Source: a virus
Length of the DNA stretch: 64,000 nucleotides
IMG/VR virus record: IMGVR_UViG_3300032285_001316
Location: 1 to 64,000 of that record
Reading direction: 5' to 3' (one strand)
Made by a program: the position numbers and the translations under genes. Below are positions 39,130 through 61,055 of this stretch, in pieces. A model generated the notes under the pieces. The model saw nothing but the letters and a program-made list of their open reading frames with translations, had not been told where the DNA came from and searched no databases. Every line of letters starts with the position of its first letter. The first letter of the stretch is position 1.

Positions 39130-39699
39130 ATGTCGAAGTTGGTCGACCCAACGGGTAAGCCACTCATCGGATCCAAAGAGATCGATGGACCAGTTATCCG
39201 TTTGCTGCGTTGTTTTGTATGCGAATCGTGGGAAGAGCTGCCCGATTATGAGGGCCCATCCAACAAGGATTACCTGTTGGAGATTACCCTAGAGAAGCAC
39301 GTGTTTCCATCGGGGGACCCACACGTAGGAAAGCTGTTCAAAGTACCCGTTAAGACGTGGGCAAACGCCGAACAGCGCAAAGCAGTCCTAGACAATTTGG
39401 GTTCAGGGTCACGTGGTCTGGATGATCTGGACCCAGAGAAGTCGTTTTACGACACCAAGATGACGTTTGCCGCAGATGCAATGACGTGTTGGAAGCAGCA
39501 CAACAGCCCCAAGCAGGATTGCAGCGATTACCAAAAGGATTCCAAGCGCCTGTTGCCTAACACGGCAAAGGAGCGTGCAGACCTAAACCTGCCCAAGCCA
39601 GAGCATCTGGATGGCCCAAAGATTTATACATGCAATTTCTGTCCCGTTCACTCAATGGTCCTGCAGCGCAAACGTGCGTTTCTGGGCATGTACGATTAA
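39130..39699 (+). CDS. Hypothetical Cys/His-rich protein
   Basis: CFVC, CW..H..C, CNFCPVH; SD GGAG. Confidence 0.7.
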   Translation: MSKLVDPTGKPLIGSKEIDGPVIRLLRCFVCESWEELPDYEGPSNKDYLLEITLEKHVFPSGDPHVGKLFKVPVKTWANAEQRKAVLDNLGSGSRGLDDLDPEKSFYDTKMTFAADAMTCWKQHNSPKQDCSDYQKDSKRLLPNTAKERADLNLPKPEHLDGPKIYTCNFCPVHSMVLQRKRAFLGMYD

Positions 39700-39713
39700 T
39701 AAGGAAAAACACA

Positions 39714-40019
39714 ATGGAAGACAACAAGGTAGTAGAGACGGTTTACACCGTTACCATTTTCACCGATGGCACATTTTCGGCAGCACTAGAGCAGCCCGAA
39801 GCACCCGTCGAGGTTCAGCGTACCGCAACAGTGTACGATGTCCTGAGCATTTCGCAGGCACTGGCAAAGGAAATTGAGCACTCACAGCTGACCGACCGCA
39901 TCATCATGTCGCTGGTTCAGGTACTGCAGGCAATGGCCCCCCAGACACCCGCAGAGACCGTAAAGGACGCCCTAAAGGAGCGCGGTATTGACCCAGAAAG
40001 CACCGCAGCAGCCAACTAA
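39714..40019 (+). CDS. Hypothetical protein
   Basis: SD AAGGA. Confidence 0.65.
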   Translation: MEDNKVVETVYTVTIFTDGTFSAALEQPEAPVEVQRTATVYDVLSISQALAKEIEHSQLTDRIIMSLVQVLQAMAPQTPAETVKDALKERGIDPESTAAAN

Positions 40020-40028
40020 ACTGGGTAT

Positions 40029-40913
40029 ATGAGTTATTTTGGCGAAGAACCCACGAGTTATTTCAGTGCACCCGCAAACACACTAGATCCAAAACTGTTT
40101 GAGGGACGCACACTGCGTTCGTGGGCACGCCAAGGAATCCTGTCATTACTGATGGATTTCCTAAACCTGCACTACCGTCACCCAGAGCTGTGGGCACAGC
40201 CCTGGTTGGCGGGGTCAGGTGTCTCATACCAATGGAGCGCCGCCAGAGAGCCAGGAGACCTGGATTGTTTGGTAGGCGTTGATTTCGTTCAGTTCCGTAA
40301 GGCAAACCCAGAGTTTGCAGGATTGCTGGACAAAGAAATCGCCGCAATGCTAAACGAAGAGTTCCACGAAAACCTTCAGTTGCAGACAAGTAACTGGAAC
40401 GGTTACGAGCTGACGTTTTATGTTAATCCTTCAGCCACAGACATCAGGGCAATTAAGCCATACGCAGCGTACAACCTGAAGCACGATGACTGGACAGTAA
40501 GCCCAGACCCAAATGCACACCCAGTAGAAAACGCTGAATGGGACCGCATCGTTCAGAGTGACGCAGAAGCAGCCAATCAGTTCCACACGCAGTTTACAGG
40601 AGCATTACAGGACATTCAGGGGTCTAGGAACAGCCCCATGCAGCGTAATGCGGAAAATAAGCTGACAATGATTGCCGCCAGTGCCAATGCGTTGTACAAC
40701 ATGATTCATGAGAATCGTTCAATGGCGTTTTCCGCAACAGGTGAGGGGTACAACGATTTCCACAACTACCGTTGGCAGGCAGGAAAGCGTTACGGAACCA
40801 TCCAAAAGCTGCGTGGTATCCGCGAATACATGAAGAATAACCTGTCCTACGGCGTAGAGATGCCTGATGCGGACACAATGATTCGTCGTGCAGCGACGTA
40901 TAGGAACATTTAG
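40029..40913 (+). CDS. Pol-beta-superfamily nucleotidyltransferase
   Basis: hG[S] motif LAGSGVSYQW followed by DLDC (DxD) and a third acidic residue in YELTFYV; leaderless (TAAACT-6nt-ATG). Confidence 0.75.
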   Translation: MSYFGEEPTSYFSAPANTLDPKLFEGRTLRSWARQGILSLLMDFLNLHYRHPELWAQPWLAGSGVSYQWSAAREPGDLDCLVGVDFVQFRKANPEFAGLLDKEIAAMLNEEFHENLQLQTSNWNGYELTFYVNPSATDIRAIKPYAAYNLKHDDWTVSPDPNAHPVENAEWDRIVQSDAEAANQFHTQFTGALQDIQGSRNSPMQRNAENKLTMIAASANALYNMIHENRSMAFSATGEGYNDFHNYRWQAGKRYGTIQKLRGIREYMKNNLSYGVEMPDADTMIRRAATYRNI

Positions 40914-41023
40914 TGTCCATTACCGACTACTGTCATTGGTGCGGACACGAATTACTGAAGGGTATCTGCACCGAGGATTATTGCAAGTGTGATTGCAATG
41001 GAGCTGACGACGAGGATTATTAA
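40913..41023 (+). CDS. Tiny Cys-rich peptide (36 aa)
   Basis: GTG start overlapping the previous stop; CHWC..C....C.C.C. Confidence 0.45.
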   Translation: MSITDYCHWCGHELLKGICTEDYCKCDCNGADDEDY

Positions 41024-41025
41024 TA

Positions 41026-41514
41026 GTGCATGTACTGGTGGATTTAGATGGTGTACTGCGAGGCGGTGACAAAGATCAACCGATTTCGCAAGGAATTATT
41101 ATGGTTGGATCGCTGAGTGCGTGGAACCAAATCACGCTGATGTCGCCGTTAAACGCGAAGCAGACACAACAGTGGTTGGATGTAAATAAGATTGTTGAGT
41201 TCGACCGTATTATCGACAGTTCAGTAGGACTGGTTGATGAGTCGTTGGCAGAACGTCAGATTAGGTTTGCACGTTCCGTTGGTCCTGTAGACCTGTTTAT
41301 TACCAACAGCCCCACGAGCTGGGCATTTGCGTTCAATCAGGGAATTGCATGCGTGATGTTTGGAGTCCCCTCCTACACACGCCCAGAGTTTAGGCCAGAT
41401 GCGCCCCGCAGAGTACGCGCATGGAGCGATATTGAGCAGGCCATTGAGGAGCAAAATGCGTTAAGGACGCAAGATGCCCGCCTGACACGAACAGAGGGGC
41501 TGATGTTCGAGTGA
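41026..41514 (+). CDS. HAD-superfamily protein
   Basis: N-terminal VLVDLDGVL (DxDG). Confidence 0.7.
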   Translation: MHVLVDLDGVLRGGDKDQPISQGIIMVGSLSAWNQITLMSPLNAKQTQQWLDVNKIVEFDRIIDSSVGLVDESLAERQIRFARSVGPVDLFITNSPTSWAFAFNQGIACVMFGVPSYTRPEFRPDAPRRVRAWSDIEQAIEEQNALRTQDARLTRTEGLMFE

Positions 41515-42998
41515 CCGACGTTATATTTGGTGGCGTAGAGATTCCGTCAAACCGCACATTACTAGAAGCCAGTGGAGTAACCAATGTGTTGCTGAATTAT
41601 TGGGGACTTAGACGAAGAGGATTACCCAAGACAAAACCATACCTCATTGGGGAGCATTTTTACCCAGAGATGAAGGTATGGGTTGATAGTGGAGCAACAC
41701 AGGCAGACAAAGCAAACCTGTCAGCACGTGAGCTGGAAGAATACGCAGCAGATTACGAAGAGTTCATTGCCCTGAATTATGACCGCATTGAGGGGTTCAC
41801 AGAGTTTGATTCCCAAGTACTGGGGTTGCCAGCCATCGTGCAGAACCGTGCAGTATATGAAAACGACCCAAAACTGTGGGTTGTCTGGCACGAAGGGTAC
41901 AACGTAGCGTTATTGGAGCAGTGGGCCCAGGAATGGCAGAACATCGCCATTCCAGGCAGCGCAATCGACACGGTTACAACACTGGCCGCCATAGTCCGTA
42001 GGATTAAAGGAGCGTACGACGTACAGTTCCATGGATTGGCCGCAGCAAAACCAGATAACCTGAGATCAATACCGTTTGATACGGTGAGCACATTGTCGTG
42101 GTTGTCGCCAATGCGGCGAGGAGAGACAATCGTGTGGGACGGAAGTAAATTGGTCCGTTACCCAAAAAAAATGAAAGCCCAGGCACGATTGAGGTACAAA
42201 ACAGTCGTGGAGAAAGCTGGGCTAGATTTCAGAAAGTTCGTCGACGATGACACAAAAGAAGCCACAAAAGTCGCAATTTGGTCCTACATACAGTTAGAGA
42301 AGTCCATGTTAAACAACCAAAAGGGCCCAAAAAAGCCCGTAGTATCTGATAATAGTGATGACACCCTATACACAGGTTTGATGGAAACTGGTATAGGGGG
42401 TTCTAATAACAGTGTGTCCGAAATGCGGAAACCTGAAACCACAGAAATCATCCAAAGAGACCCTCAAGAGATAGTTTCCATGCCTGTTTTTGGGTATGAA
42501 ATGAAGACAGTTGTCGAGACAGAAGACGGTCGCGATATCCTGAAGGATGTCCCAGTTGTGCAGAGCAATTCGGGCAGTTTACGACAGTGCGATACGTGTT
42601 TTGTATCCTCAAATTGCCCCGCATTCAAGCCGTCAAATACGTGTGCGTTTAGTTTGCCAGTAGAGGTAAAGACAAAGGACCAATTAAAGGCGTTGTTGAC
42701 CACGATCGTTGAAATGCAGGGCCAAAGAGTGGCATTCATGCGTTTTCAGGAAGAGCTAAACGGTGGATACGCTGACCCAAATGTGTCACAGGAAATCGAT
42801 CGTTTGTTCAAGTTGGTGGGTAACATGAAGGACCTAGAGACCAACAAAGAGTTCGTTCAGATTACTGCCTCAAGGGAGACATCTGGAGGAGTCCTTAGTG
42901 CCATTTTTGGTGATAAAGCATCCGCTCTAAAGGAGATGCAGAAGCCCCTGGACGAGGAGCAAACCACCATCATCATTAACAACAGCCTAGAGAAGTAG
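41511..42998 (+). CDS. Fusion: divergent TGT/DpdA-like TIM-barrel domain + Cys4 and helical C-terminal domain
   Basis: WVDSGA, EFD, VWH, HGL, PFDTVSTLSW motifs in the order seen in phage TGT-like proteins; C-terminal CDTC..CP.F..C. Confidence 0.55.
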   Translation: MTDVIFGGVEIPSNRTLLEASGVTNVLLNYWGLRRRGLPKTKPYLIGEHFYPEMKVWVDSGATQADKANLSARELEEYAADYEEFIALNYDRIEGFTEFDSQVLGLPAIVQNRAVYENDPKLWVVWHEGYNVALLEQWAQEWQNIAIPGSAIDTVTTLAAIVRRIKGAYDVQFHGLAAAKPDNLRSIPFDTVSTLSWLSPMRRGETIVWDGSKLVRYPKKMKAQARLRYKTVVEKAGLDFRKFVDDDTKEATKVAIWSYIQLEKSMLNNQKGPKKPVVSDNSDDTLYTGLMETGIGGSNNSVSEMRKPETTEIIQRDPQEIVSMPVFGYEMKTVVETEDGRDILKDVPVVQSNSGSLRQCDTCFVSSNCPAFKPSNTCAFSLPVEVKTKDQLKALLTTIVEMQGQRVAFMRFQEELNGGYADPNVSQEIDRLFKLVGNMKDLETNKEFVQITASRETSGGVLSAIFGDKASALKEMQKPLDEEQTTIIINNSLEK

Positions 42999-43063
42999 TA
43001 TCTGATAGGAGCACGCGTGTAGGCATGGAACGTGTGTCCCCCGCAAATCGCGCCCAACACAAA

Positions 43064-43098
43064 CAAATGCCCCCCACCATAAAGTGAGGGGCATTTGC
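43064..43098. terminator. Stem-loop between convergent + and - transcription units
   Basis: caaatgcccc...ggggcatttg. Confidence 0.7.
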
Positions 43099-43106
43099 TA
43101 TTGGTG

Positions 43107-43382
43107 CTAGTGCGTATAGTTAATTGGCTCGAGAGGTATGTGGAACTCTCGGCGGTAATCTGCTCGCTCTGGAGCGGTCGCTCCACCCCAGATACCGTCG
43201 CGCTCATGACGTATTCCATGATCGAAACAGTTGAGCTTCTCAGAACATCCCGCACATATCTGCTTGGCTAGGACTACGCTCTCAATGTGAGAGTCGCTTC
43301 CATTAGGAAAGAAGATATCGGGAGTGTCTACTTTGGTACATGCTGCTTGGTCGTAATCGATGTTGATGCTGTATTGCGTCAT
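43107..43382 (-). CDS. whiB: WhiB-family regulator
   Basis: AAC..PDIFFP..AKQICAGC....C..GIWGG.T..ER. Confidence 0.9.
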   Translation of the reverse strand: MTQYSINIDYDQAACTKVDTPDIFFPNGSDSHIESVVLAKQICAGCSEKLNCFDHGIRHERDGIWGGATAPERADYRREFHIPLEPINYTH

Positions 43383-43636
43383 CGCTTCTTCCTTGTCTGC
43401 TTGTGCTTGATCTCGATAAAGCCATTCATGCGTAGATCCTTTCTGATCTTCATCACTACGCGCCAGTCACTAGGTGAGCTGGAAGAGTAGAACAACCCTC
43501 CATTAGGATTGGTCCACTTGAGGTGAGAGTTTTTAGTGATGGTCACTAGCCACCCTTGCCTCTCGGCATCCTTGATTAGTTCGTTGACATCTTTGTTAGT
43601 TGTGAGTCCCACAGATTCTCCTTTTGTTGTTCCCAA
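43379..43636 (-). CDS. HicA-like protein
   Basis: LIKDAERQGW.V..TKNSHLKW..P.G...SSSPSD.R; dsRBD-like HicA pattern with the conserved His. Confidence 0.65.
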   Translation of the reverse strand: MGTTKGESVGLTTNKDVNELIKDAERQGWLVTITKNSHLKWTNPNGGLFYSSSSPSDWRVVMKIRKDLRMNGFIEIKHKQTRKKR

Positions 43637-43860
43637 TCAAACATTACCTCATACGTCTGACGTATAAGCTCACTGGTCGGCATACCAAGAGCAGAGGCAA
43701 TAACCTCAACCATTTCTGATGAGGCGTCTTTCTGTCCACGTTCAACTTCGCTTAGATAGCTTAATGCGATGAACGCCTTCTTGCATACATCTCGCAAACC
43801 AAGCCCTTGCTTTAGTCGTTCGGTCCGCATGACATACCCAAGTGCTGTTTTAAATAACAT
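43576..43860 (-). CDS. XRE HTH regulator, ClgR-like
   Basis: LRDV...A.I.LSYLSEVERGQKDASSE, close to the actinobacterial ClgR HTH. Confidence 0.8.
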   Translation of the reverse strand: MLFKTALGYVMRTERLKQGLGLRDVCKKAFIALSYLSEVERGQKDASSEMVEVIASALGMPTSELIRQTYEVMFDWEQQKENLWDSQLTKMSTN

Positions 43861-43862
43861 TG

Positions 43863-44144
43863 TTACCGTCCTTCGTACTGCCACATGACTGCGTTGCACA
43901 GTGAGTGCACTGCGCCCTCAGTCATGCCTGTATCGTGATTGTGCTGTAGGTGTACGGGGTACTTAAGGAACTGAGGAGGAAATAAGTTCCAATTGACTTC
44001 CTTGTTACGTACTTCCTCTGAAGGAGACCAGTTAAGCGCTTTGCCACAGTAGTAGCACTTACCTTCTTGTAGCTTGACGTACTCTTCACGTACTTCCTTG
44101 CGTTCAAGTGTGGTTAGCTCCTCATAGTTAACAGGTAGTTCCAT
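43863..44144 (-). CDS. Endonuclease VII-like protein
   Basis: Q.GKCYYC..HLQHNHDTG...G.VH..CN. Confidence 0.7.
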   Translation of the reverse strand: MELPVNYEELTTLERKEVREEYVKLQEGKCYYCGKALNWSPSEEVRNKEVNWNLFPPQFLKYPVHLQHNHDTGMTEGAVHSLCNAVMWQYEGR

Positions 44145-44155
44145 TGTTTGCTCCT

Positions 44156-44629
44156 TTACACAGGCCAGATATATTCGTAGTCAGTTGGTTGGTAGCCTGG
44201 ATCTTCAGCCCAACCGAACTGTGAGTACCACTCGTAGTCCTTAACAAGTAGCGCCTTGCGGTGAGTACTTGCGATGCTCTCGTAGTCAGGACCAGTCATC
44301 CACAGTGGGGCAACGTCTACAAAGGTATCGTGAGACGCCTGAATAGTTGCTGTTGCCTTTTCACCGATGGTTGACTTGAAGCCACGTCGCTTCCACTCCT
44401 CCACCATCGTGACGATGTAGTTGTAAAGGACGAGCTCGTGACCGCGCCACATCTTAGCTGCGGGATGGTTGTACCAGCCCTTGGGTTCACGGTGATTACC
44501 TTGTGGGTCAAGCTTGAGGTTGGTCATAAGTATCTGCCAGCCCTCAAGTGCTTGCTTGTTAAGGCGTTTGTTGTCTAGTACTTTAGCGATGTCCGCGAAG
44601 GAACTCGTCAAAGGAACGAACGTCTGCAT
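44156..44629 (-). CDS. Pyrimidine-dimer DNA glycosylase-like (MSMEG_6728 family)
   Basis: MQTF.P..LD.KRL.KQ..E..QI..HPA..MW.G..EW..RG..SHR..L..KD. Confidence 0.8.
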   Translation of the reverse strand: MQTFVPLTSSFADIAKVLDNKRLNKQALEGWQILMTNLKLDPQGNHREPKGWYNHPAAKMWRGHELVLYNYIVTMVEEWKRRGFKSTIGEKATATIQASHDTFVDVAPLWMTGPDYESIASTHRKALLVKDYEWYSQFGWAEDPGYQPTDYEYIWPV

Positions 44630-44868
44630 ATTTTCTCACTTCCCTTTCTTCCAATAGTCCACGTACACTGACGCAGATTCCAAATACACAAAAGGACATA
44701 AGCCCGATGCTTACTGCGGTAAAGATGTCCTCAATCATTAATCGTCTCCAAACATCTCAAAAGACTTCTCTTGATAGTCGTCATACATCTCGTCACAGTA
44801 ACAGGGCGAGAATCCGCAGGTAGAACAAGGCTCGTCCTGTTCCTCTTCCTCAATCATTGTTTTCTCCT

Positions 44869-45060
44869 TTATTCGTGGCTAATGCCGTGTTCTTGATCGA
44901 TCTCAGTGTGGATGTCCCGCCTCAATCGGGGCAAGATCCATTTTTTAAATACTACGTTGTACAGCAGGGCAATAACAATACCGTCAAAGATAACTGTCCA
45001 AAATAGTTCAGCGATGATGTGATTGGGGTCAGTGGCTATGTCCCACCATGTCTCAGTCAT
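44869..45060 (-). CDS. Small membrane protein
   Basis: One TM segment. Confidence 0.55.
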   Translation of the reverse strand: MTETWWDIATDPNHIIAELFWTVIFDGIVIALLYNVVFKKWILPRLRRDIHTEIDQEHGISHE

Positions 45061-45197
45061 CTAAGTACTCCTTTAGGCACACTACACATATTGGCGTGTA
45101 GTCCCCTTTATTGGAGAACATGACTGGGATATCGGGATGTCTCTCACACATCCCCATATCCTCGTCTAGCCAGTTGTAATTTGTTTGTGTTGGACGT

Positions 45198-45581
45198 TTA
45201 CGCAGCCCCTTGATAGAACCGCGTAATGTCTCCCACACGTCGTGCACGCGCGACATCTGCATCCTCCTCTTTCTTAGTAAGGACCTTCTTACGTTTCTCC
45301 ATGGCACGGATGTGCTCTGGGATTATTGACTTGTCTCGTTCCATGATTCGGCGCTCATATTGTGTTGCGCCTCCCCAAATACCAAACTCCTCTTCGTTGG
45401 TAAGTGCGTAGTCTAAACACTGTTGCAGGATGTCACAGCGAGCACACACGTCGATTGCTTTAAGCATCTTGTGTGTCTTCTCACTTCCAGCACTAAACAC
45501 TTCAGGAAAGAATATGTCTGGGTCAGTGTTTTGACAGTTAGCCTCATCGGCATTGGGTACGTAGTTGATGAGGTTGAACAT
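45198..45581 (-). CDS. whiB: WhiB-family regulator
   Basis: ANC..TDPDIFFP..CARC....C..GIWGG.T..ER. Confidence 0.9.
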   Translation of the reverse strand: MFNLINYVPNADEANCQNTDPDIFFPEVFSAGSEKTHKMLKAIDVCARCDILQQCLDYALTNEEEFGIWGGATQYERRIMERDKSIIPEHIRAMEKRKKVLTKKEEDADVARARRVGDITRFYQGAA

Positions 45582-46169
45582 TGCATCCTCCTTAGGACTT
45601 CATCATGAGTGACTGCAGGTGTCGGTATGCTTCATAGTTACCTTGCGTCCATTCATCCATGTCCTCTCCATCAAAGCCCCACATCTCCATGTCATCTTCG
45701 ATGGCGCGTACACGATCGCAGATGTACTTGAAGATGTCCTCGTTACTCATGAGTGCCACTAGTTATCTTCTCCTATGATGTCGTGCTCAAGAGCGAACGG
45801 CTCGAGAGTGTTATAGTCATCGCCCAGCGTCATGTTGAGCGATATAAGGATGTTACCGTCAGCCTGTGACATTGCCACAGCCTCGGGAGCAAACGCGAGA
45901 ACGTGCTCCATGATGTCGCTTAGTGTTGCCTTACTCATCTGTTTCTCCTTTTATCTCATCTATCGCTCTCCACCAGTTGAAGTGCGCGATTGTTCCTGAA
46001 GGCATATTACCGAAGATTTCAGTCACGATTTCCATCGCTCGTTTTCTTTCGTCTTGTCGTGCCTTTGCTATTGCTTGCTCCTTGTTCAGTGCCATTTACT
46101 TTCTCCTTATGACAATCACACGGACACACTAGGGGTGCGTTGTTCCATTCGAACTCGTTGATACATTCG

Positions 46170-46952
46170 CTATGCTGGCTGGTTAGACACCACCCGAACT
46201 TCAGACTCATCTTCCTCCTTTGTTCCTGCGTTACGATACTCCTCTGCGTACTCTACGTCCTTGATTTCAGCAGCCTCGGGAAGGTCATACCCAGACTCGG
46301 CTGCCTTAGCTGCCTCAAGAGCATCAACCTCAGTGCGCGCTTGTACATAGTACTTGGTTACTACCTCAACTACATAAACGCTTTTGGTTTTGCCTGGGCA
46401 GTCATCGAACCAGTCGTCAGGGTCACTAGAGTTGGCGCACCAACACCCGTCTTCATCGTCACGTTTGACATAGTCTGCGTGAGATGATGGGCTGTCCCAC
46501 TCCTCCATAGAGGTAAGGATGTTAGCCTTCATCGTGTACTCTGCGCCGTACTGTTGCTCCTCTTCCCACCAGACATCGAACTCAAGAGCAGGATACTTAG
46601 CAGACATAGCTTCAATTACAGGCAGAGGGTGACTCCACGCTGTCTCAAAAGAGATGTACACGCTTGTAGGATCAACGGAGACCTCTGCGTTACAGGCATC
46701 CCATTTCGTATTCCAGTGGGCGTTGTTCCAGTCATACCAGACACCTCCTTTAGTTTCGCCAAAGGAGCTACCCTCTACAGGAGTTCCAAGGTATTCTTCC
46801 TTTGTTAGGTCAGGCGTTACAAAGGAGTGGAATGAGAATGGGGATGGTTCATTACCAGCAAGCTTAGGGGTGTCCTCAATGTGTTCTAGGAACGCTATGC
46901 GGTCATCCTCTGGCCCAGTAATGCTAATGCGGTTGTATACCCAGTTAGGCAT
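46170..46952 (-). CDS. DUF1281/YubB ferredoxin-like domain protein
   Basis: MPNW..WYDWN..HW.TKWDA..F.TAWS.P. Confidence 0.75.
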   Translation of the reverse strand: MPNWVYNRISITGPEDDRIAFLEHIEDTPKLAGNEPSPFSFHSFVTPDLTKEEYLGTPVEGSSFGETKGGVWYDWNNAHWNTKWDACNAEVSVDPTSVYISFETAWSHPLPVIEAMSAKYPALEFDVWWEEEQQYGAEYTMKANILTSMEEWDSPSSHADYVKRDDEDGCWCANSSDPDDWFDDCPGKTKSVYVVEVVTKYYVQARTEVDALEAAKAAESGYDLPEAAEIKDVEYAEEYRNAGTKEEDESEVRVVSNQPA

Positions 46953-46980
46953 GATTATTCCTTTCGTTTGTTTGTGTTGG

Positions 46981-48930
46981 CTACACGCCAGCGTTGATTA
47001 GGTTGCGCTTGATGCCAAGGTTGACGATGCCACGACCAAGTGCGAACAGGTCATTGGTATCAGTGATGTGTACGGCTACCTCGCATCCGTGAGTATCTAC
47101 GGGAGTATCATCATTGTGATACGTTTCTCGTGGGTCAGATACAAAGGCTAGTGCGGTAAGCACACCAGCACGACGGAACTCTTTGAGTAGCTTGTCACTT
47201 GCTTCGCTGTCACTCCATACACCATCAGTGATAGTGATACAGAGCTTGATAGCACGCTTAGACTCAGCAAGAACATTCTTGGCATACTTGAGCGTTTGTA
47301 GTGGCTCAGTACCACCACGACACCAAGACATGCGTACGTTAGTACTTACTCGCTCCTCAGAGGAGTAAAGGACAAACGGACGGTGGTCATAGGCAAGGAC
47401 TGTAGTACTTGCGTTAGCACGATCAAGGGCACGCTTCATAGCCCACATGGACTCGAACGCTCCCTTGGCCATACCCTGCATAGACCCAGAGATATCTAGC
47501 AGGATGACTGCCTCGATGTCTACGGCATCCTCACGCCCGATATCCCACTCATCGAAGCACTCGTCAAGGTCAGTGCCTGTAACGTAGCGTTGGATGTTGA
47601 GACGCCCGTGCTCAGTACGGCGTAGCCAACCTGGGTCAAACTCTGCTCGCAATCGCTCTAACTCGGTAGCAAAGGACTTGGAAGCCTGTGCTATTTCCTT
47701 AGGAACAACCTCGTCAAAGGTATCGAGACGTGATGGCTTGCCAGCATTGGTAGACGTAAGCTCAGCGTCTGCGTTGTACTGCTTGATTGTCTGGGCAATC
47801 TCACGCGCCTTAGACTGCTTGACCGTGTTGATGATGTCCTTGGCAATATCTGACAGGGACTTGTCACCAGTAGCAGAGCCACTGCCCATGGAGTCAGGCG
47901 TACCATCTTGAGCGCCCTCGTTGCCGTTGGTATCTGCGGATGTTGCGTTATCCTGCTCGATAGCATCAGCCACACGTTCGCTAACCTTCTGCTGTTCTGC
48001 CTTGGACATGGGCTTAGACTTGGAAGCCTTCCACTCACCAGTAGCACGGTGGTCATGACCTGATGGGTCACTTACACGCTTCCACCCACTGTTGTTGTTC
48101 CAACTGTTGTTGTTCCAGTAGTCCGTAGACGTGCTAGGCAACTGGGTGATTAGTGCGTCGTACTTTTGGATAATGTCTAGCGCAACTGCGTAGTTCTTAG
48201 GGTCAGCAAGGTTGAGCACAATGTACTGGTCAATCAAGCTACCAATTTCCTGTACGTGCTGAGGCTGTTCGTACAAGTCAGCTACCTGCTTACGCAATTC
48301 CTTAGGCAAGTACTTGCGCCCATGGAGTAAAGGAAACGCTACATTCCATTGCTCAGGCTCATCCATGATGAACTTAGCGACTGCCGCCTTGAGCCAGTCA
48401 GCTACATTACCGAAACGCTTAGTCATATACATCTCGATACGCTGGTCTTCTAGAGCATTGAACGCCCGCCATAGACCCTGCTTCTGTACATCCTTGGCAA
48501 GGTTGCTACCAGCACGTGGGGTAAGGAGGATGTGGGCAATCTCGTGAAGGCTAAGCCCCTTGATGTTGAGCACGGTGTCGGGGCTGGTGAGATCCTGTAA
48601 CGAGTTCTCGTGAAACCAGATGTTATCGGAGTCTGACCATGCGGGAGCGTCAGGCGTGCCCTGAGCCATCTTGCCCCCCATGTCTACACGGATGGGGCGC
48701 AAGGTAAGAGTGCTAGCGAACTTAGACACAACTTGTAGCATACGTACACGTCTAGCAGTGTCGGGGTCTAGCAGGTCGGTGTTGTAGAACTTAGGCGTGG
48801 AAATGTTTGTGTTGGTAGCATCCTCGCCTACTTGGATGTTGTCGATAGCGTCTACCATGTTCTGCACGTGCTTGTCCTTGGAGGACTGTATCGCAGACAG
48901 GATTGACTGTAGTGCGTCATCAGGGTTCAT
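46981..48930 (-). CDS. VWA-domain protein with HExxH metallopeptidase-like motif (CobT/NorD-like partner)
   Basis: HEIAH, NALEDQRIE, MIDAS DISGSM, GGT, ITDG. Confidence 0.85.
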   Translation of the reverse strand: MNPDDALQSILSAIQSSKDKHVQNMVDAIDNIQVGEDATNTNISTPKFYNTDLLDPDTARRVRMLQVVSKFASTLTLRPIRVDMGGKMAQGTPDAPAWSDSDNIWFHENSLQDLTSPDTVLNIKGLSLHEIAHILLTPRAGSNLAKDVQKQGLWRAFNALEDQRIEMYMTKRFGNVADWLKAAVAKFIMDEPEQWNVAFPLLHGRKYLPKELRKQVADLYEQPQHVQEIGSLIDQYIVLNLADPKNYAVALDIIQKYDALITQLPSTSTDYWNNNSWNNNSGWKRVSDPSGHDHRATGEWKASKSKPMSKAEQQKVSERVADAIEQDNATSADTNGNEGAQDGTPDSMGSGSATGDKSLSDIAKDIINTVKQSKAREIAQTIKQYNADAELTSTNAGKPSRLDTFDEVVPKEIAQASKSFATELERLRAEFDPGWLRRTEHGRLNIQRYVTGTDLDECFDEWDIGREDAVDIEAVILLDISGSMQGMAKGAFESMWAMKRALDRANASTTVLAYDHRPFVLYSSEERVSTNVRMSWCRGGTEPLQTLKYAKNVLAESKRAIKLCITITDGVWSDSEASDKLLKEFRRAGVLTALAFVSDPRETYHNDDTPVDTHGCEVAVHITDTNDLFALGRGIVNLGIKRNLINAGV

Positions 48931-48977
48931 TGTTTGCTCCTTTGTTTGTAGGAGGGGGGCTTGCGCCCCCCACCTGG

Positions 48978-50399
48978 TTAGTTAGTGGAGTACTTACCGA
49001 TGCTAACGCCAAGCTCGTTGGCGATAGTAGGCGCTTCAGCATCAAAGCGCATCTTGATAGCGTCACGCTCACCGTCCATCTTGGGGTAGTTGGACAGGAG
49101 AGAGTTGACCGCGAACTCAAAGTTCAGGCTCGTAGCATGAGACACAAAGTTCTTGAGGATACGAGTGGACATTGGTACAGAGAACTCATCGTTCATCTCG
49201 GATGCTTCACGGATATTGCTAGCAAATCCTAGGAGCGTGAAGGATGGGATGAAGTTACTCTCGATGTTGGTATCGTAGGTGAACTCCAACTTAGTACCGA
49301 AGCGGTCAATCAGCGCGGCATCTTGACGGCTAGTACCTGTGTACCCAATGCCTGTGTTCTGGTCGGCAATGAATAGCACGTCGGGGTGTACCTTGATGAC
49401 CTCATTGAGTGGGTCGATACGCAACTCGCGCTCTTCCAAGAGGCTAAGGAACAACGGAGCAGCCTTAGGAGTCATACGCGTCAACTCGTTGATGAGGATA
49501 ACACTAGGCTGTTGGATTGCCGTAGCCAGTTGGCTGTACTTCCAGCGGGTAGTGTTACCTACGCCTGTCGGTACGAACCTACCCTGTGTAACTGTCTGGT
49601 CAATCTGCTGGGTACATTCGATGGTTACGAATGGCAAGCCCTTGATTGCCGCGTAGTTACGGGCACTCGATGTCTTACCTGTACCAGCATCACCAGTAAG
49701 CAAGACATTGTCTTGCTTGCTACGTGCGTTGTCGTATATCTGCTCCTCAGTAAGTCCAAAGAACTTACGTGTGAAGTAGGGCTTGACATCTGGCACGGTA
49801 AGCACTGCGCCATTCTCTGCGGTGCTGGCAACGATTGTGCTGTAATCCATGTCTGGCTCACTTTCTGTTGTCGGAGGCAATCCCACGGTGGGAAGCTCGT
49901 AGATAGGCTCACTCAAAGGTTGCGAAGCAACCCCCGCGTAAGCGGGCTCTAGTACTACTGGCTGTTCTACGGGAACAGGAACAACCTGAATGCTAGGGCT
50001 TACTACCACTGGGGTAGCAACAAGATACTTAGCAAGTACTGCTGGGTTAGCGATCGCGGCATCCATCACTTCGTCATAGACTTCGTGGAATGGGCGACCA
50101 CTTACCGTATCCATATCCTTTACTGTGCGTACAAGCTTCTGTACTAGCACGGTAGGGGTGATTGGGAACTGAAGCATCTGGTAATCGGCTGGGGTAAGGG
50201 CTACTGACATAGGCACGCCTACGCTATCACCTACGAAGCTCAGCACATCTCCACCAGATAGCTCTCGCCAAGCACCTGCCGTACCCCTAAGCCCCTTACC
50301 ATCACGGGTGAACCTACGGATATTGCCGTCTTGTAGAGGCACAATAACTACCTGCTGAATACCTGTTGGGGTATCTTGCTGAAGGATAGTCGCGAACAT
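48978..50399 (-). CDS. MoxR-type AAA+ ATPase (CbbQ/NorQ/CobS-like)
   Basis: GDAGTGKT, ILINE, DAALIDRF, STR; adjacent to the VWA gene. Confidence 0.88.
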   Translation of the reverse strand: MFATILQQDTPTGIQQVVIVPLQDGNIRRFTRDGKGLRGTAGAWRELSGGDVLSFVGDSVGVPMSVALTPADYQMLQFPITPTVLVQKLVRTVKDMDTVSGRPFHEVYDEVMDAAIANPAVLAKYLVATPVVVSPSIQVVPVPVEQPVVLEPAYAGVASQPLSEPIYELPTVGLPPTTESEPDMDYSTIVASTAENGAVLTVPDVKPYFTRKFFGLTEEQIYDNARSKQDNVLLTGDAGTGKTSSARNYAAIKGLPFVTIECTQQIDQTVTQGRFVPTGVGNTTRWKYSQLATAIQQPSVILINELTRMTPKAAPLFLSLLEERELRIDPLNEVIKVHPDVLFIADQNTGIGYTGTSRQDAALIDRFGTKLEFTYDTNIESNFIPSFTLLGFASNIREASEMNDEFSVPMSTRILKNFVSHATSLNFEFAVNSLLSNYPKMDGERDAIKMRFDAEAPTIANELGVSIGKYSTN

Positions 50400-50686
50400 T
50401 ACTTATCTCCTTTGTTGTTTAGAACAATGCGCTTGTATTGGACATTGTCTGTGTGGTTGTTTACGTACTCGCTATCAAACTCGATGCGACTACTGGGTAG
50501 GTCATTGTCTAACAACCTATCCTCTAAGTACCTGACTAGGTCAAGCACTGCGTAGGGGTCATTACTTGTGTCGAAGTACAGGGCATCTAGTACCGTGTAC
50601 AACTCTCGTGCCGTAAACACTACGTCTACGGTTGTGCTGTCGATGGGGTCTAGAGTCTCTACAACCTCATCATCTATCTCTAACAT
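50399..50686 (-). CDS. Acidic hypothetical protein
   Basis: SD AAGGAG; directly downstream of the hammerhead. Confidence 0.65.
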   Translation of the reverse strand: MLEIDDEVVETLDPIDSTTVDVVFTARELYTVLDALYFDTSNDPYAVLDLVRYLEDRLLDNDLPSSRIEFDSEYVNNHTDNVQYKRIVLNNKGDK

Positions 50687-50698
50687 GGGCTCTCCTTT

Positions 50699-50767
50699 TG
50701 ACTCATCAGGCTAGGCTCTTACCTAGCGACGTGTAGCCCCCACACACAAGGGCTACACGTTTCGTCA
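50699..50767 (-). ncRNA. Type II hammerhead ribozyme
   Basis: Minus strand: UGAC GAAA C GUGUAGCCC-loop-GGGCUACAC GUC^ GCUAGG uaagag CCUAGC CUGAUGA GUCA; full core and three stems. Confidence 0.92.
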
Positions 50768-50782
50768 TCTCCGAAGAGGGGC

Positions 50783-50950
50783 TCAGATAATCTCTGTGCG
50801 TGTCTCGCAGTAATCTACGCAACTAGGGCAGTCAGGGTCACCACAAGGGCAAGGCTCACCGTCTAGGTATGCGTACATCTTTGCGAGTGCTTCATCCTCA
50901 CTGTCTGCTGTGACAGTGTAGGACTCTCCTGTGAGGATTGTGTACTCCAT
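50783..50950 (-). CDS. Small Cys-rich acidic protein
   Basis: MEYTILTGESYTVTADSEDEALAK..CPCGDPDCPSC; SD AAGGAG. Confidence 0.6.
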   Translation of the reverse strand: MEYTILTGESYTVTADSEDEALAKMYAYLDGEPCPCGDPDCPSCVDYCETRTEII

Positions 50951-51104
50951 TACTTACTCCTTAGGTTGAGTAGTACTAGGGCTAGTGCGCTCCCTAGGGC
51001 TACGGCTATGCTGACGGAATTGTTTGTGTTGGCAAGGCTTGCGCCTAGTGCGCTTGTCACGCCTAGCAGGGCGCACATTGTCGCGCCTAGCTTGAGATAC
51101 CTAA

Positions 51105-51356
51105 TCACTTTGCGCTCCAATCAACTTGGTAGTACAAGTCCATGTGTAACTTGTACTCGTACTCTGACTCTTCTTGTGAGTTTGAGTAGGCGTCGTTGAT
51201 TAGCTCCCAACCGTAATTGGCAGACTCATCTTTGACGTAGGTCTGTACTGCGTACCATGAGTCACCGTCGCTCTGGTCTACCAAGATAGTCAGGTAGTAA
51301 TCATCGCTGTACTCGTGTAGTACATTCTCTGTTTCTTCCCAAGTGACTAGGGACAT
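51105..51356 (-). CDS. Acidic, Tyr-rich hypothetical protein
   Basis: SD AAAGGAG. Confidence 0.6.
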   Translation of the reverse strand: MSLVTWEETENVLHEYSDDYYLTILVDQSDGDSWYAVQTYVKDESANYGWELINDAYSNSQEESEYEYKLHMDLYYQVDWSAK

Positions 51357-51763
51357 TGCTTGCTCCTTTGTTATGTGTGTGAGAGTAGGCAGTTTAGACA
51401 CTTGCCTAGGTGCTTCCTTTGATCCAAGGGCGGTCACTTTAACGGCTCGTGCTACGGACGCTCGTCATGATTGCCTAACGCGGTCATAAATCGCGACTAT
51501 TTCAAAGGTCTACTATGAGCCAAGACATCATCACTAGCCCTTGCGGGGGGACTATAGTCTCGTCACTGCGCGCCCTCAGGCATAGTTACCTCTTACCTAT
51601 CGAGAATTACATCTCTCTAGGAAGTTCTTGACGGCTTCACTCTTGGTGAAGTCGAAGTACTGGCAGTGCTCTAGGTAGGCGTGGATACCATCCACTACTA
51701 CGGCTGAACACTCCCAAGCACCTTGAGAGGTACGTCTTACGGATACGTCACTCTTGGTAACCA

Positions 51764-51973
51764 TTAGTCCGTGTACCCTTCTACGAGCGTGCCATCTTCG
51801 GCAAGACTATCTGCGTAGTCTGCTTCTCCTACACGGTAGGCGATAGGGTCGCACAACCTAAGAATTGCGGAAGGCGAAAAGCTTACGTACCCCATCTTGT
51901 AGATTGGGTAAACCTCATCGAGCATCTCTTCGTAAAGCTCAATGAACTTCTCGTGTGTGATTGTTGTTGCCAT
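51764..51973 (-). CDS. Hypothetical protein
   Basis: YEEMLDE..PS.IL...DPIAY pattern; SD AAGGAG. Confidence 0.65.
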   Translation of the reverse strand: MATTITHEKFIELYEEMLDEVYPIYKMGYVSFSPSAILRLCDPIAYRVGEADYADSLAEDGTLVEGYTD

Positions 51974-51983
51974 GAGTATCTCC

Positions 51984-52325
51984 TTAGTTCTTGTGTGTGA
52001 TTAGTGTTAGTACTTCTTCGAGCTTAGAGTCGGATAGACCTAGGTCATCTCCCTCATCATCTACGCCCCCAACTAGGATGGCGTCGCCCATGATGATGTC
52101 TGTCGCCCCAAAGCGCGTTCTAAAGAGCAACGTCGCTAAGAGGTTGAGAGGTAAGCCGTCGAGCTTTCCCTCTTCGTTGACGTACATAGTGAGGTCATCA
52201 TCTAGGCTAACGGCTTCGATGTATCCTCCTACGGCGTCGCTAATGACTCTGTATGAGCCCTCAGGTGCGTCTAGGTCGACTGTCTGTATGCTCTTAGAGG
52301 CTCTGACAATAAGTGCTTTGCGCAT
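51984..52325 (-). CDS. DUF3846-family protein
   Basis: VGGYIEAV..MYVNEEGKL..LP.N..AT..I.GD. Confidence 0.85.
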   Translation of the reverse strand: MRKALIVRASKSIQTVDLDAPEGSYRVISDAVGGYIEAVSLDDDLTMYVNEEGKLDGLPLNLLATLLFRTRFGATDIIMGDAILVGGVDDEGDDLGLSDSKLEEVLTLITHKN

Positions 52326-52585
52326 TAGAGGCTCCTCTCTATGTATTCTGATTGTGCTTTGACTAGACGCTTTAGGGCGCTAATCGTGTCGTGCATTTTC
52401 TCTACGCGATGCTCATAGGCGTTGACTGTTGCCTCTAGGTCTCGCTCTAGGTCTTTCTCCACACTAGAAAGGTTCTCTACTGTGAACTGATGCTCTAGCA
52501 AGTACCTTTCGTAATTGCTAATGTCTTGCGCTTTGTCTGCGAATAGAAGCTCATACTCCCACTCCGCTAATGGCTCTTTGCTCAT
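52325..52585 (-). CDS. Hypothetical coiled-coil protein
   Basis: SD AAAGGAG. Confidence 0.6.
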   Translation of the reverse strand: MSKEPLAEWEYELLFADKAQDISNYERYLLEHQFTVENLSSVEKDLERDLEATVNAYEHRVEKMHDTISALKRLVKAQSEYIERSL

Positions 52586-53027
52586 CTTGCTTTGCTCCTT
52601 TACTCTAGGGCTACCCTAAGGACGCCCAAGCTTGTGGGGGTTCTAGGGGGCGAGAGCCCCCTAAGTCTCTTTCGAGAGGCTTTGTGTGTTATCTAGAGAG
52701 ATAAAGACTTATAGAGAGAGACACACATACGTCTATACACGCTCTCCCTATAAGCCCTCACCTGTTACATATGACATACCCTAAGAGAGTTTCTCTATCG
52801 TGGGGATTCTGTCTTATGCCTGACTTATGTACATACCATGCCTAAGAGTGACTCTCACCCTTGTTAGCCTATGGCGATGTGCTTCCTAAGCCTAGAAACA
52901 CAAAAAGCCCTACAGGCTTACCTGTAAGGCTCTCTCTGATGCTAGTACCTGATACGAGTAAGGGGGGCTAGTCTGCGACCTGGCGGTACACTCGCTTAGC
53001 CCCCCTCTCTCTTAGAGCAGTAGCCTA

Positions 53028-53387
53028 TTAGGCGTTGATCAGCTCTACAATGTCTTCCCAGCCTGCGTTGAGACCGAGACCCTTGATGATGCTAAGGCAT
53101 TCGGTGCTTACCGCGTAGGCAAAGGAGTCTTTCCGTGCCTGCTCACTCTCGTAGGCAGACTTAGGCATACCCTTGAAAGCCTGGTATGCCTGGGCAATCT
53201 GAGGGATAGTGAAGAAACCGCCAAGGCTAGTTACCTCGTATTCGCGCGAGAGAACCTCAGCACGCTTAGCGCGCTTGAAGTCAAGCACGAATGGGCGGAA
53301 CTGGGGCATACCCTCTAGCACGCGTAGTTGTGCGGGCGTAGCGGTTTCGAGGTTGAGTGCGTCGGCGGTAATAACTGAAGTAGACAT
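53028..53387 (-). CDS. Hypothetical protein, first gene of the leftward early block
   Basis: SD AAAGGGG. Confidence 0.65.
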   Translation of the reverse strand: MSTSVITADALNLETATPAQLRVLEGMPQFRPFVLDFKRAKRAEVLSREYEVTSLGGFFTIPQIAQAYQAFKGMPKSAYESEQARKDSFAYAVSTECLSIIKGLGLNAGWEDIVELINA

Positions 53388-53788
53388 ATGTCTACCCCCT
53401 TTCTTATGTGTGTGTTTAGTTGGGGCGAATACCCCTTAGAGCCTAGGTGCGAGACATAAGCCCTAAGGGGAACAGGGTGCGCACGCGCCTTAGAGACACG
53501 CACGCGCCCTGCCCGTGTAAACACACGGAAAGATTACCTAGCCCCGTTAGCGCGTCTCTCACACGCGCCTAGGGGCGTTGCCGTATTAGGGCGGAAACCA
53601 CAGTTGCCGAAGCCCCTGCGTCTAAGACAAACCTAGCCCAAGACCTGCCAAAGTAACCGCACGCTTAGCCAGTAAGCACCAGGTGAGAAACACGGTTGAG
53701 GCCCTCTCAATCTAGGCAGTAGCCTAAATCGGCCACAGTAGCTCAATTAACAGATAGATCGCCCCTACCGATGTGGCAGACTTGATAT

Positions 53789-53920
53789 ATGGACGAGTTT
53801 GACGAGATCATCGAAGTGTCATTTACTGACCGCGAAATCGCCACGCTCAACATGCGCGCCCTCACCTTTGAGGAGTGGAAGGCCATGGTAGAGGGCAACG
53901 GGATCGAATTCGAACCCTAA
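53789..53920 (+). CDS. Small acidic leaderless protein (43 aa)
   Basis: MDEFDEIIEVSFTDREIATLNMRALTFEEWKAMVEGNGIEFEP; TGGCAGACT-6nt-ATG. Confidence 0.55.
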   Translation: MDEFDEIIEVSFTDREIATLNMRALTFEEWKAMVEGNGIEFEP

Positions 53921-53967
53921 GATCGCCCCTGCTATAAACGCTGTGTAGTTATCAAGCTGCTAGTACT

Positions 53968-53996
53968 AATCTAGTCAAAGTGGCTACCTGAGTCAA
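53968..53996 (-). promoter_or_regulatory. SigA/sigma70-type promoter driving the leftward early block
   Basis: Minus strand TTGACT-17nt-TAGATT. Confidence 0.7.
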
Positions 53997-54087
53997 ATTA
54001 GCGGCGCGCGTATAAGCAGGGGCGTTTTAAGGGTAAAAATTGTGTCACAATGGGATGAACATCCCCCCAGGCGAATAGGAAACCGTC

Positions 54088-54201
54088 ATGGCAGCAAAGA
54101 AGTCTCGTGGAGACCGTAACGACAACCGTCCCAGTGGCAAGGCGTCAAAGAAGACCCCTAAGGTATTTGACCCCATTAAGCGTCGTCTCGTAACGAAGTA
54201 A
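54088..54201 (+). CDS. Small basic peptide (37 aa)
   Basis: MAAKKSRGDRNDNRPSGKASKKTPKVFDPIKRRLVTK; SD AGGA. Confidence 0.55.
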   Translation: MAAKKSRGDRNDNRPSGKASKKTPKVFDPIKRRLVTK

Positions 54202-54213
54202 GGGCTCTCGGTA

Positions 54214-54555
54214 ATGACAACCCCAGAAAATACCCCCAAAAGCTCGTGGACACCAGCAGAGTGCGCGCACTGTGGCTATGAGGTAGTACCTGCAGAAGTA
54301 GGTCACGAGATCCACGGTAGTCACTGGGAAGAACCTTCCCCAAATGGTTGGGTACACAACCCCGCCACGGTAGGCAAGCACTGGACAGAGAATTACGACA
54401 CCAAGACTCACGCAGCCATGCCTTACGACGGACGTACAGTAGAGCAGGAGCACGCTGGGGCTGAGGAGTTCCAACGTCAACTGGACGCGACGCACACAAA
54501 AGCGGCCTTCGAACAGATCATGAAGAACAATAACCTAGGGCGACAGTTCGACTAA
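54214..54555 (+). CDS. Hypothetical protein ending NLGRQFD
   Basis: CAHC, His-rich. Confidence 0.65.
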   Translation: MTTPENTPKSSWTPAECAHCGYEVVPAEVGHEIHGSHWEEPSPNGWVHNPATVGKHWTENYDTKTHAAMPYDGRTVEQEHAGAEEFQRQLDATHTKAAFEQIMKNNNLGRQFD

Positions 54556-60978: not shown

Positions 60979-61055
60979 GCCCCCTTAACTCAGTTGGTCA
61001 GAGTGCGATACTTGTAATATCGAAGTCAGGCGTTCGAACCGCCTAGGGGGCCCCA
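60979..61055 (+). tRNA. tRNA-Thr(UGU)
   Basis: Acceptor GCCCCCT/AGGGGGC, anticodon arm CGATA-CTTGTAA-TATCG, T loop GTTCGAA, encoded CCA. Confidence 0.93.

Follow-up and report, generated by a model that had tools for sequence, protein, structure and literature searches.

Enrichment of CTAG in an early gene block purged of other four-base-pair palindromes in an uncultured actinophage-like virus

Why should a phage genome multiply one four-base-pair (4-bp) palindrome in a region from which others have been removed? This question is raised by the IMG/VR virus record IMGVR_UViG_3300032285_001316, a single contig of 93,151 nt from an uncultured, actinophage-like virus, of which the first 64 kb form the stretch analysed here (the window). 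Genes read rightward almost throughout this genome, and the lone leftward block (43.1-53.4 kb) opens, at its promoter-proximal end, with a run of small early genes that is rich in CTAG. Starting sharply at a conserved noncoding element, ~8 kb of this block have been purged of several 4-bp palindromes of the Type II restriction-site kind, and within the purged DNA CTAG has been kept and multiplied, in coding and noncoding DNA alike. Neither codon use nor the purge explains the CTAG excess. We propose that the excess has been selected at the level of DNA and marks the leading early block of a linear phage genome, a proposal that we regard as evenly poised between acceptance and rejection.

Between positions 50690 and 53720 there are 37 CTAG sites. 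The remaining genome predicts 7.5, so the excess is 4.9-fold (Poisson P = 1.2e-14), and the rest of the window predicts 8.1. When the whole 93-kb genome is divided into 1-kb bins, the only CTAG peak lies at 50-54 kb (11, 8, 15 and 9 per kb versus ~3), so the enrichment reported in a preliminary description of this DNA is significant and forms a single genome-wide peak. The six CTAG that the description had counted within 50941-51120 were recovered at 50976, 50982, 50994, 51045, 51063 and 51087, and the sequence runs that it quoted are present at ~52693 and ~52782. Its premise that CTAG is among the rarest tetramers does not hold for this genome, where CTAG outside the block is only mildly depleted (0.72 of the mononucleotide expectation). 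Related words rise together with CTAG: on the plus strand of 50690-53720, CTCT occurs 43 times versus 12.5 expected and TAGG 35 times versus 7.6, TTAG and TCTC are enriched too, and the most enriched 5-mer is CCTAG/CTAGG (~10-fold). In the coding sequences (CDS) of the leftward early genes, which were called as simple open reading frame (ORF) picks, CTAG reaches ~11 per kb (25 in 2,220 nt). Fifteen of the 37 sites fall outside called genes, at roughly 15-18 per kb of intergenic DNA, so that the density in noncoding DNA equals or exceeds that in coding DNA.

The phage is contractile-tailed, with a tail sheath gene at 105-1565, baseplate genes, DnaB at 19470, PolA at 25592, and TerL, portal and capsid genes at 67-73 kb of the genome. 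Searching the phage collection for near-identical DNA returned no close DNA relative. Among cultured phages, Streptomyces myophages of the BRock group come closest, with collinear gene order and identities of 51-52% in TerL, 60% in capsid, 54% in portal and 37% in PolA. Two cultured relatives, the Streptomyces phages LuckySocke (OR725497) and GiJojo (PP725410), were compared in more detail; for LuckySocke the identities are 60% (major capsid), 54% (portal) and 51% (TerL). For comparison we used eight related uncultured IMG/VR genomes, which together with the present genome (G000) make nine genomes in two clades; the relatives are 34-64% identical in an AAA ATPase, where the gene is present, and 62-82% identical in a DpdA-like protein. 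Seven of the nine belong to a clade in which CTAG is the enriched word and two (G005 and G009) to a sister clade in which GATC takes its place.

A neutral origin of the excess has to be weighed against these counts. Here CTAG itself would be idle, a by-product in coding DNA of the codon and amino acid use of early genes (CTA, AGR and acidic proteins) and, in noncoding DNA, of promoter, terminator or hairpin repeats that happen to hold YTAGG or CTWAG. Several observations favour this explanation. In the nine minus-strand genes (50399-53387), 40% of Leu codons are CTA, versus 12% in rightward genes, in agreement with the heavy CTA use noted earlier; AGR, AGC, ACA and GCC codons are also preferred in these nine genes; and 22 of the 25 CTAG in CDS consist of a CTA codon followed by a G-initial codon. 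Furthermore, local counts of CTA, TAG and TA predict 33.9 CTAG against the 37 observed. Because CTAG is near expectation given the local 3-mers, the shift lies at the di- and trinucleotide level (CT, TA). Relatives also carry lineage-specific repeat arrays at the same place.

The excess is nevertheless larger than codon use can provide. Recoding the nine proteins with genome-wide codon use gave 6.2 ± 2.3 CTAG versus 25 observed, and shuffling synonymous codons among the nine genes gave 19.3 ± 2.6 (P = 0.02); within the same genes this shuffle gave 7.7 CCTAG versus 14 observed. Gibbs recoding with genome usage, in which the purged palindromes, A-tracts and CAG/CCA/GGA were forbidden, yielded 10.5 ± 3.0 CTAG, so that avoidance of other words lifts the expectation only from 6 to 10.5 of the 25 observed. 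We also ran a synonymous-swap chain over the first 8 kb of the operon, with proteins and codon counts fixed and forbidden palindromes held at or below their observed number. This gave 29.9 ± 3.8 CTAG versus 44 observed in G000, 31.4 versus 54 in G001 and 27.3 versus 41 in G003, and in the sister clade 66.1 GATC versus 118 in G009 and 54.0 versus 73 in G005; in G006, a plain synonymous shuffle gave 24.1 CTAG versus 34 observed. The word-level excess over synonymous nulls has z values from 3.4 to 12.7 in six genomes. It is also specific to the block: the ratio of observed to shuffled CTAG in G000 is 1.50 in the block and 1.04 in the other 110 genes, and across genomes it is 1.3-1.84 within the block and 1.04-1.18 outside it. 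In addition, the sister clade enriches another palindrome, GATC, to as much as 25 per kb, and two palindromes out of 256 tetramers are unlikely by chance. Codon use as the sole cause was therefore rejected by resampling and shuffles, and a by-product of avoiding other words by the Gibbs recoding and the constrained synonymous-swap null. Taken together, we consider the neutral origin unlikely.

A cause in translation or RNA fares worse. The preference for CTA and ACA could be tied to tRNA supply, or CUAG could be an RNase or structure signal. ACA indeed accounts for 47% of Thr codons in the early genes versus 28% elsewhere, next to the rise in CTA described above, and the sole phage tRNA, Thr(UGU) at 60979-61055 (the only Rfam match at gathering threshold), reads ACA. 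LuckySocke has a tRNA-Leu(UAG), and a tRNA-Leu was looked for in the present genome and none was found. On the other hand, noncoding DNA is at least as CTAG-rich, the excess remains when codon counts are fixed, an RNA signal needs no palindromy, and GATC in the sister clade occurs equally in frames 0 and 2. We give this cause only a very slight chance. Reassignment of the TAG stop codon was considered separately and rejected: the ORFs on the minus strand run uninterrupted behind strong Shine-Dalgarno sites, and it is CTA that stands in frame.

The counterpart of the CTAG excess is the purge. Over 45615-53699, TGCA, TTAA, GGCC and GATC together occur 13 times versus 116.2 expected (P = 4e-34). 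Over the longer interval 45615-54290, observed and expected counts are 3/39.8 for TGCA, 4/30.7 for TTAA, 5/24.7 for GGCC and 11/30.1 for GATC, and the over-represented palindromes are CTAG (61/20.5), GTAC (65/39) and GCGC (45/26). The depletion persists in the CDS of the block when compared with synonymous shuffles (TGCA 3 versus 25.2, TTAA 0 versus 16.4, GGCC 2 versus 15.2, GATC 6 versus 26.3), and GCWGC, CTGCA and CCAG/CTGG are strongly and strand-symmetrically depleted in 50.4-53.7 kb. At the sharp outer edge, GGCC, AGCT, AATT, TTAA and GATC return within 53700-53757; the inner edge lies near 45.6 kb, within a run of coupled genes. Restriction-site avoidance is also extreme at the scale of whole genomes, since CCGG is absent from all 93 kb (50% G+C) versus ~356 expected, and relatives have zero whole-genome counts of GATC, CGCG or AGCT. 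These zero counts show that restriction pressure is strong in the family. With depletion that exceeds what composition and codon use predict, and with word sets that differ among related phages, the regional purge is very probably an island of restriction avoidance.

The relatives show how far the two anomalies are shared. They keep the layout of a DpdA operon, a convergent junction, a leftward block (with denV, Api92-like, VWA and AAA genes), small genes and a divergent region, although the small early genes themselves are not conserved. In the genomes that retain the block, a palindrome step lies at the conserved element, each with its own purged word set: TGCA, GGCC, GTAC, AGCT, AATT and TTAA in G001 (where AGCT is absent from 10 kb of block and numbers 0 in CDS versus 38 by shuffle), TGCA, AGCT and GGCC in G004, AGCT and GTAC in G003, and TTAA and GGCC in G006. 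G007, which ends 163 nt past the element, was left out of this scoring. When the block was compared with the rest in five genomes, CTA/TAG was the most enriched 3-mer, CCTA/TAGG and CTAG were the most enriched 4-mers, and TGCA, AGCT, GGCC and TTAA the most depleted. In the divergent sister pair, GATC is enriched in the early block at 7-13 per kb in G005 (L039, ~28.3-38 kb) and 15-25 per kb in G009 (L052, ~15.2-27 kb), with equal use of frames 0 and 2, and CTAG in G005 is rarer in the block than elsewhere. The GATC flanks in these two early blocks also avoid GGATCC. The terminal leftward block of LuckySocke (103.3-114.2 kb of its record) has CGCG 4-fold above the rest, a G+C content of 57% versus 53%, and fewer AGCT, GATC, TCGA and TGCA than the rest. 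Its spacers hold 10.2 CTAG per kb, within GAGCC..CTAG..GGCTC motifs similar in style to those of intergenic region 2 here (Table 1), so that part of the signal is a regulatory "dialect" shared across the phage group.

The identity of the enriched words brings host methylation into consideration. A methyltransferase of the host would act on CTAG or GATC, and a densely methylated exposed block would be favoured as a self mark, as a shield for neighbouring DNA or for the timing of early promoters by hemimethylation. Methyltransferases typically recognise 4-bp palindromes such as these. Dam methylates GATC, and at oriC and P1 pac the methylation state of GATC clusters is what makes them work; the phages, moreover, are without a methyltransferase of their own (three families, five genomes). 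However, the enriched word tracks the phage clade while purged sets vary between near relatives, and the sites of restriction-modification systems are normally avoided, not multiplied. Host methylation is, in our judgement, improbable.

The position of the block within the virion DNA depends on the conserved noncoding element at its head (Table 1). The family form of this element, TTTAGGCTACTGC-N16-18-YCAACCGTGTNTNTCACCTGG, is found once in each of the nine genomes, and the element is also present in 10 IMG/VR contigs and 48 metagenome contigs. The DNA just downstream of it is unrelated between phages and carries lineage-specific short repeats. LuckySocke and GiJojo are linear records with an exact repeat at both ends (344 bp and 197 bp, respectively), and each pair of ends is flanked on one side by ~10 kb of small leftward genes and on the other by rightward genes, the syntenic place of the element. 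Both phages carry CAGTAGCC with its start 36 nt in from the left end, and the base preceding that end completes a CTAG. When the family element is aligned with the concatemer junction of the two cultured phages, CAGTAGCC and C-Y-A-G-G are invariant; the cut follows CTAG in the cultured relatives and is aligned with CCAG here. LuckySocke has two CAGTAGCC copies, 36 and 37 nt inside its two repeat boundaries. In the present genome GGCTACTG recurs at 53018-53025, at a distance of 699 nt, and every family genome that retains the stretch has a second same-strand copy 208-1976 nt further in, G007 having a single copy. Judged by synteny, by this alignment and by the sharp compositional edge, a genome end probably lies at 53.68 kb, which makes plausible the end near 53.7 kb that the preliminary description had envisaged. 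The purge would then start at the very end of the virion DNA and run inward. Just across the junction, the DNA, which is predicted to be the far end of the linear molecule, is ordinary in composition.

An end at this place raises the alternative of a packaging or concatemer-processing field, in which CTAG-type words near the end would serve terminase or the duplication of the terminal repeat. Short repeat arrays flank the terminal repetition of T7. All four repeat boundaries of LuckySocke and GiJojo touch CTAG (with a slash for the boundary, ..ACTAG/GG.. on the left and ..CC/CTAG or ..C/TAG on the right), and CCTAAG- and CTAGG-type words crowd both intergenic regions beside the predicted repeat. 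Yet no known packaging site comes near the 3-8 kb of coding DNA over which the enrichment extends, the family has CCAGG and not CTAGG as its aligned cut pentamer, and the GATC clade carries the same element. A packaging role is thus very improbable as the source of the excess.

The preliminary description had gone further and suggested that the 10.8-kb leftward block may be a long terminal repeat or first-injected DNA, with two-step ejection as in T5 among the options, a dense binding or processing field at one end, an exclusion zone beyond the other and a second genome end near 43.0 kb. Some observations agree with such a model: the purge resembles T5 first-step-transfer DNA; G007, 82% complete, lacks just this block, its contig running from the denV homologue at one end to a point 163 nt beyond the element at the other; and the anomaly at 39-43 kb co-varies with the CTAG clade. 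Against it, the repeats of the cultured relatives are the short ones given above, and the motif pair predicts ~0.7 kb; the purge ends at 45.6 kb, not at 43.1 kb; no A1/A2-like genes were recognised in family searches; and nothing marks an end near 43.0 kb. The ends of the record overlap by 123 nt, so that the assembly is circular (IMG/VR label "direct terminal repeats"), and contig starts differ between relatives. The long repeat is, consequently, among the least probable of the readings that we considered. The suggestion of first-injected DNA, which came with it, fares better in one part, as a sharp-edged purge fits first-exposed DNA, although the purge stops at ~45.6 kb, short of the end of the block.

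The other anomaly, at 39-43 kb, concerns an operon that encodes a DpdA-like guanine transglycosylase (Table 1). The product of 41511-42998 matches phrog_887 over nearly its full length (E = 7e-66), and its homologue in GiJojo and LuckySocke, 35% identical, is annotated as dpdA-like. The protein is conserved in all family members and in the cultured relatives, and has more than 1,600 homologues, nearly all of them unnamed metagenome proteins, many on 85-99-kb contigs; one comes from an "uncultured Caudovirales phage" record. The three genes upstream have no PHROG match, and no preQ0 synthesis genes were noticed. This operon is the only conserved candidate for DNA modification. Its coding strand is nearly free of CT words in all frames (CTT 4 versus 51, CTC 10 versus 61, TCT 13 versus 49; CTY 3.6 per kb versus 28.9). 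The mirror image of the early block that the preliminary description saw here does exist on the plus strand, in the CTT and CTC counts, but only in terms of the physical strand: the operon strand is coding and the early block is coded on the other strand, so the mirror compares a coding with a template strand. The two anomalies, which the description had linked, do co-vary among related phages: the CT-free operon strand is present in all seven CTAG-clade genomes and in neither of the two GATC-clade genomes.

Our preferred explanation, a selected DNA-level property of the leading block, can be spelled out. The element would be the terminase cut site, and the purge would start at the physical end of the molecule, beside a ~0.7-kb terminal repeat. 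The block would be the DNA that sits in the cell before phage counter-defence works, either because it is the first to enter or because it alone is without a protection that covers the remaining genome; a regional purge of Type II-like sites would mean that the block is exposed while the rest is not. With such early exposure, cleavable sites in the block would be unaffordable. That the block is the first DNA to enter is a reading we hold somewhat tentatively, a shade below an even call. CTAG, or GATC in the sister clade, would be the site at which a protein with two-fold symmetry binds the exposed DNA or modifies it. Both enriched words are themselves two-fold symmetric, as expected of a dimeric reader or writer at the DNA level rather than of an RNA or codon effect, and because the enriched word follows the clade whereas the purged sets differ between near relatives (and are presumably driven by the host), a phage-encoded factor is hinted at. 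Such a reader or writer site is a candidate role for CTAG, possible but less secure than first entry. The DpdA-like transglycosylase in particular is a doubtful choice for the reader or writer. Equally doubtful is the fuller idea that one palindrome has been concentrated on the first-exposed end as the target of the phage's own base-exchange or binding system, for which the DpdA-like operon is the candidate.

A number of observations weigh against this explanation. In G002 and G004 the purge is present and the CTAG excess in CDS is absent under the synonymous shuffle, and in LuckySocke the CTAG excess is confined to intergenic DNA, in repeated hairpin-like motifs, with none in CDS; both facts favour the neutral origin. 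The tetramers have no flanking consensus and no regular spacing (spacing is roughly Poisson), and an extended recognition site or regular spacing was rejected when flanks and spacing were analysed. No terminator, promoter or other landmark was found at the inner edge of the purge. Family searches recognised no anti-restriction gene among the early proteins, and none of the methyltransferase families PF01555, PF02086 and PF00145 was found in five genomes of the family. The contrast between CTAG and GATC clades is one independent event only. With respect to the terminus, the second motif copy of GiJojo does not mark its repeat boundary, which leaves the repeat length uncertain, and of the 48 metagenome contigs with the element 11 stop within 225 nt beyond it and none exactly at it, a pattern compatible with strain variation as well as with a terminus. 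The genome end, the terminal repeat and the order of entry are, throughout, inferences from sequence.

Table 1. Features of the leftward early block and of the DpdA-like operon (positions in the window)
Feature	Position	Strand	Remarks
DpdA-like guanine transglycosylase and three conserved upstream genes	39130-42998	+	DpdA-like gene at 41511-42998
Palindrome-purged zone	45615-53699		First ~8.1 kb of the leftward operon
Conserved core genes	46170-50399	-	Api92-like, VWA-like (weak match) and AAA_5 (MoxR/CobS-like) ATPase; Pfam
Eight small early genes	50399-52585	-	CTA-rich and AGR-rich codons
CTAG-rich segment	50690-53720		Promoter-proximal 3 kb of the leftward early block
Hammerhead-like ribozyme (type II)	50699-50767	-	Between two early genes; stem I GCUAGG/CCUAGC gives two CTAG
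Intergenic region 2 (IG2)	52586-53027	-	Terminator-like hairpin 52902-52935, AGAGAG runs, hairpin 52625-52661
Predicted direct terminal repeat, ~0.7 kb	52982-53682		From the motif pair, by the LuckySocke rule; low confidence
First gene of the leftward operon	53028-53387	-	ORF, 119 aa, AGGGGG Shine-Dalgarno-like site
Intergenic region 1 (IG1), upstream regulatory region	53388-53678	-	Four CTAGG words, three GGCGCGTG words
Conserved noncoding element	53679-53728	-	Minus strand TTTAGGCTACTGC-N17-CAACCGTGTTTCTCACCTGG; probable terminase recognition and cut site

The genes of the block give few leads to function. The product of the first gene belongs to no known family in Pfam, PHROG or Atlas, and among the eight small genes the only family matches are DUF3846 (51984-52325) and phrog_9294 (51764-51973). 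Seven of the nine early proteins had no informative match in Pfam or PHROG, and Atlas no usable lead for two of them. The 50399-50686 product (95 aa) is very acidic and is a candidate DNA mimic by composition only, with no Pfam, PHROG or Atlas support. The core genes further in have homologues 30-64% identical in relatives that keep the block.

Between the genes, IG1 and IG2 together hold the words CTAGG, CTTAGG/CCTAAG, AGAGAG and GGCGCGTG, and the window contains no large repeats, only short words. At the position of IG1, relatives have short repeat arrays of their own: CTAGGYAA six times in G003, TGTATAACA in G004 and GGTAAGCC in G002. IG2 holds two similar CTCTTAGG...TATGT...CAGG units, and its hairpin with the tail TAGGGGGC-N-GCCCCCTAGAACCCCC (52625-52661, minus strand) occurs once here and twice in G003 (81.7-82.4 kb), where the surrounding genes are otherwise unrelated. 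A second local word anomaly was seen at 89-91 kb of the genome, where TAAG reaches 12-16 per kb and CTAAG 7-8 per kb, versus ~3 and ~1 elsewhere. No convincing sigma-70-type promoter was found in 53388-53678, and the sigma-70 consensus may not be that of the host; TTGACT-17-TAGATT lies at 53968-53996 on the minus strand. Sigma-70-like matches in 43000-50500 are scarcer than in shuffles (1 versus 7.5 ± 2.6). The hammerhead-like ribozyme has a readable core, GACGAAAC...GUC...CUGAUGAGUC, with its stems, and is kept in G002 (L021, 8630-8690), where stem III carries compensatory changes and loop I differs. Rfam at E ≤ 1 gave no match across 50.3-54.3 kb, the hammerhead-like ribozyme included.

If the fuller idea of a phage-encoded base-exchange or binding system is true, the leading DNA would be stripped of cleavable sites and densely modified or coated, a two-layer and position-specific shield. 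Alternatively, the enriched palindrome would be a mark that separates parental from replicated DNA and times early expression. If the proposed explanation itself is true, base composition alone would reveal the end of an uncultured phage genome that is first to meet the host and, phage by phage, the restriction specificities of the host population, giving a cheap metagenome readout of infection polarity and host defence repertoires. The same genome layout occurs in LuckySocke and GiJojo, both in culture, which makes the question open to bench experiments.

Among known systems, T5 is an instructive comparison. EcoRI sites and CRISPR targets are effective in T5 only within the first-step-transfer DNA, which is naturally without such sites, and the rest of its genome is protected by a pre-early function (bioRxiv 10.1101/866236). 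The present phage resembles T5 in a terminal segment of ~8-10 kb, with small early genes read inward from a predicted end, and in a purged block that lacks restriction sites present in the remaining genome. It differs in that the T5 segment lies in a 10.1-kb terminal repeat while the repeat predicted here is short (0.2-0.7 kb). T5 also needs A1/A2 and an injection stop signal, and neither A1/A2 homologues nor a stop signal were found in this genome; T5 is a siphovirus, whereas this family is myovirus-like. Enrichment of one palindrome has, to our knowledge, not been described for T5. The leading end of T7 likewise has a short direct terminal repeat, as is predicted here, and early genes reading inward from the end, in T7 the one that enters first. 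In T7, slow entry lets an early anti-restriction function (Ocr, the first gene) act before most sites are exposed. Unlike T7, the present phage has a contractile-tailed virion, and no gene of its block was recognised as Ocr- or ArdA-like; in LuckySocke and GiJojo an ArdA-like gene lies just outside the leftward block, on the other strand.

Complete absence of certain 4-bp palindromes is familiar from genome-wide palindrome avoidance in phages, to which the present genome adds a second, regional layer, in one sharp-edged block and paired with one enriched palindrome. Known phage DpdA enzymes are sequence-selective, acting on GA (iggy) or on GA and GGC (CAjan), and protect against restriction (PMC10484667, PMC7544227). 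As in those systems, a transglycosylase of the DpdA/TGT family is encoded here. We know of no DpdA that targets a palindromic tetranucleotide, and the link between DpdA and CTAG is drawn with low confidence. The GATC clusters of oriC/SeqA and P1 pac offer a parallel in which one 4-bp palindrome is multiplied locally and serves at the level of DNA, and the sister clade enriches GATC itself; those clusters span ~0.1-0.3 kb, however, and the field described here extends over 3-10 kb of mostly coding DNA. The positive enrichment of one palindrome at a putative leading end has no established explanation, and points to a protein that reads or writes DNA.

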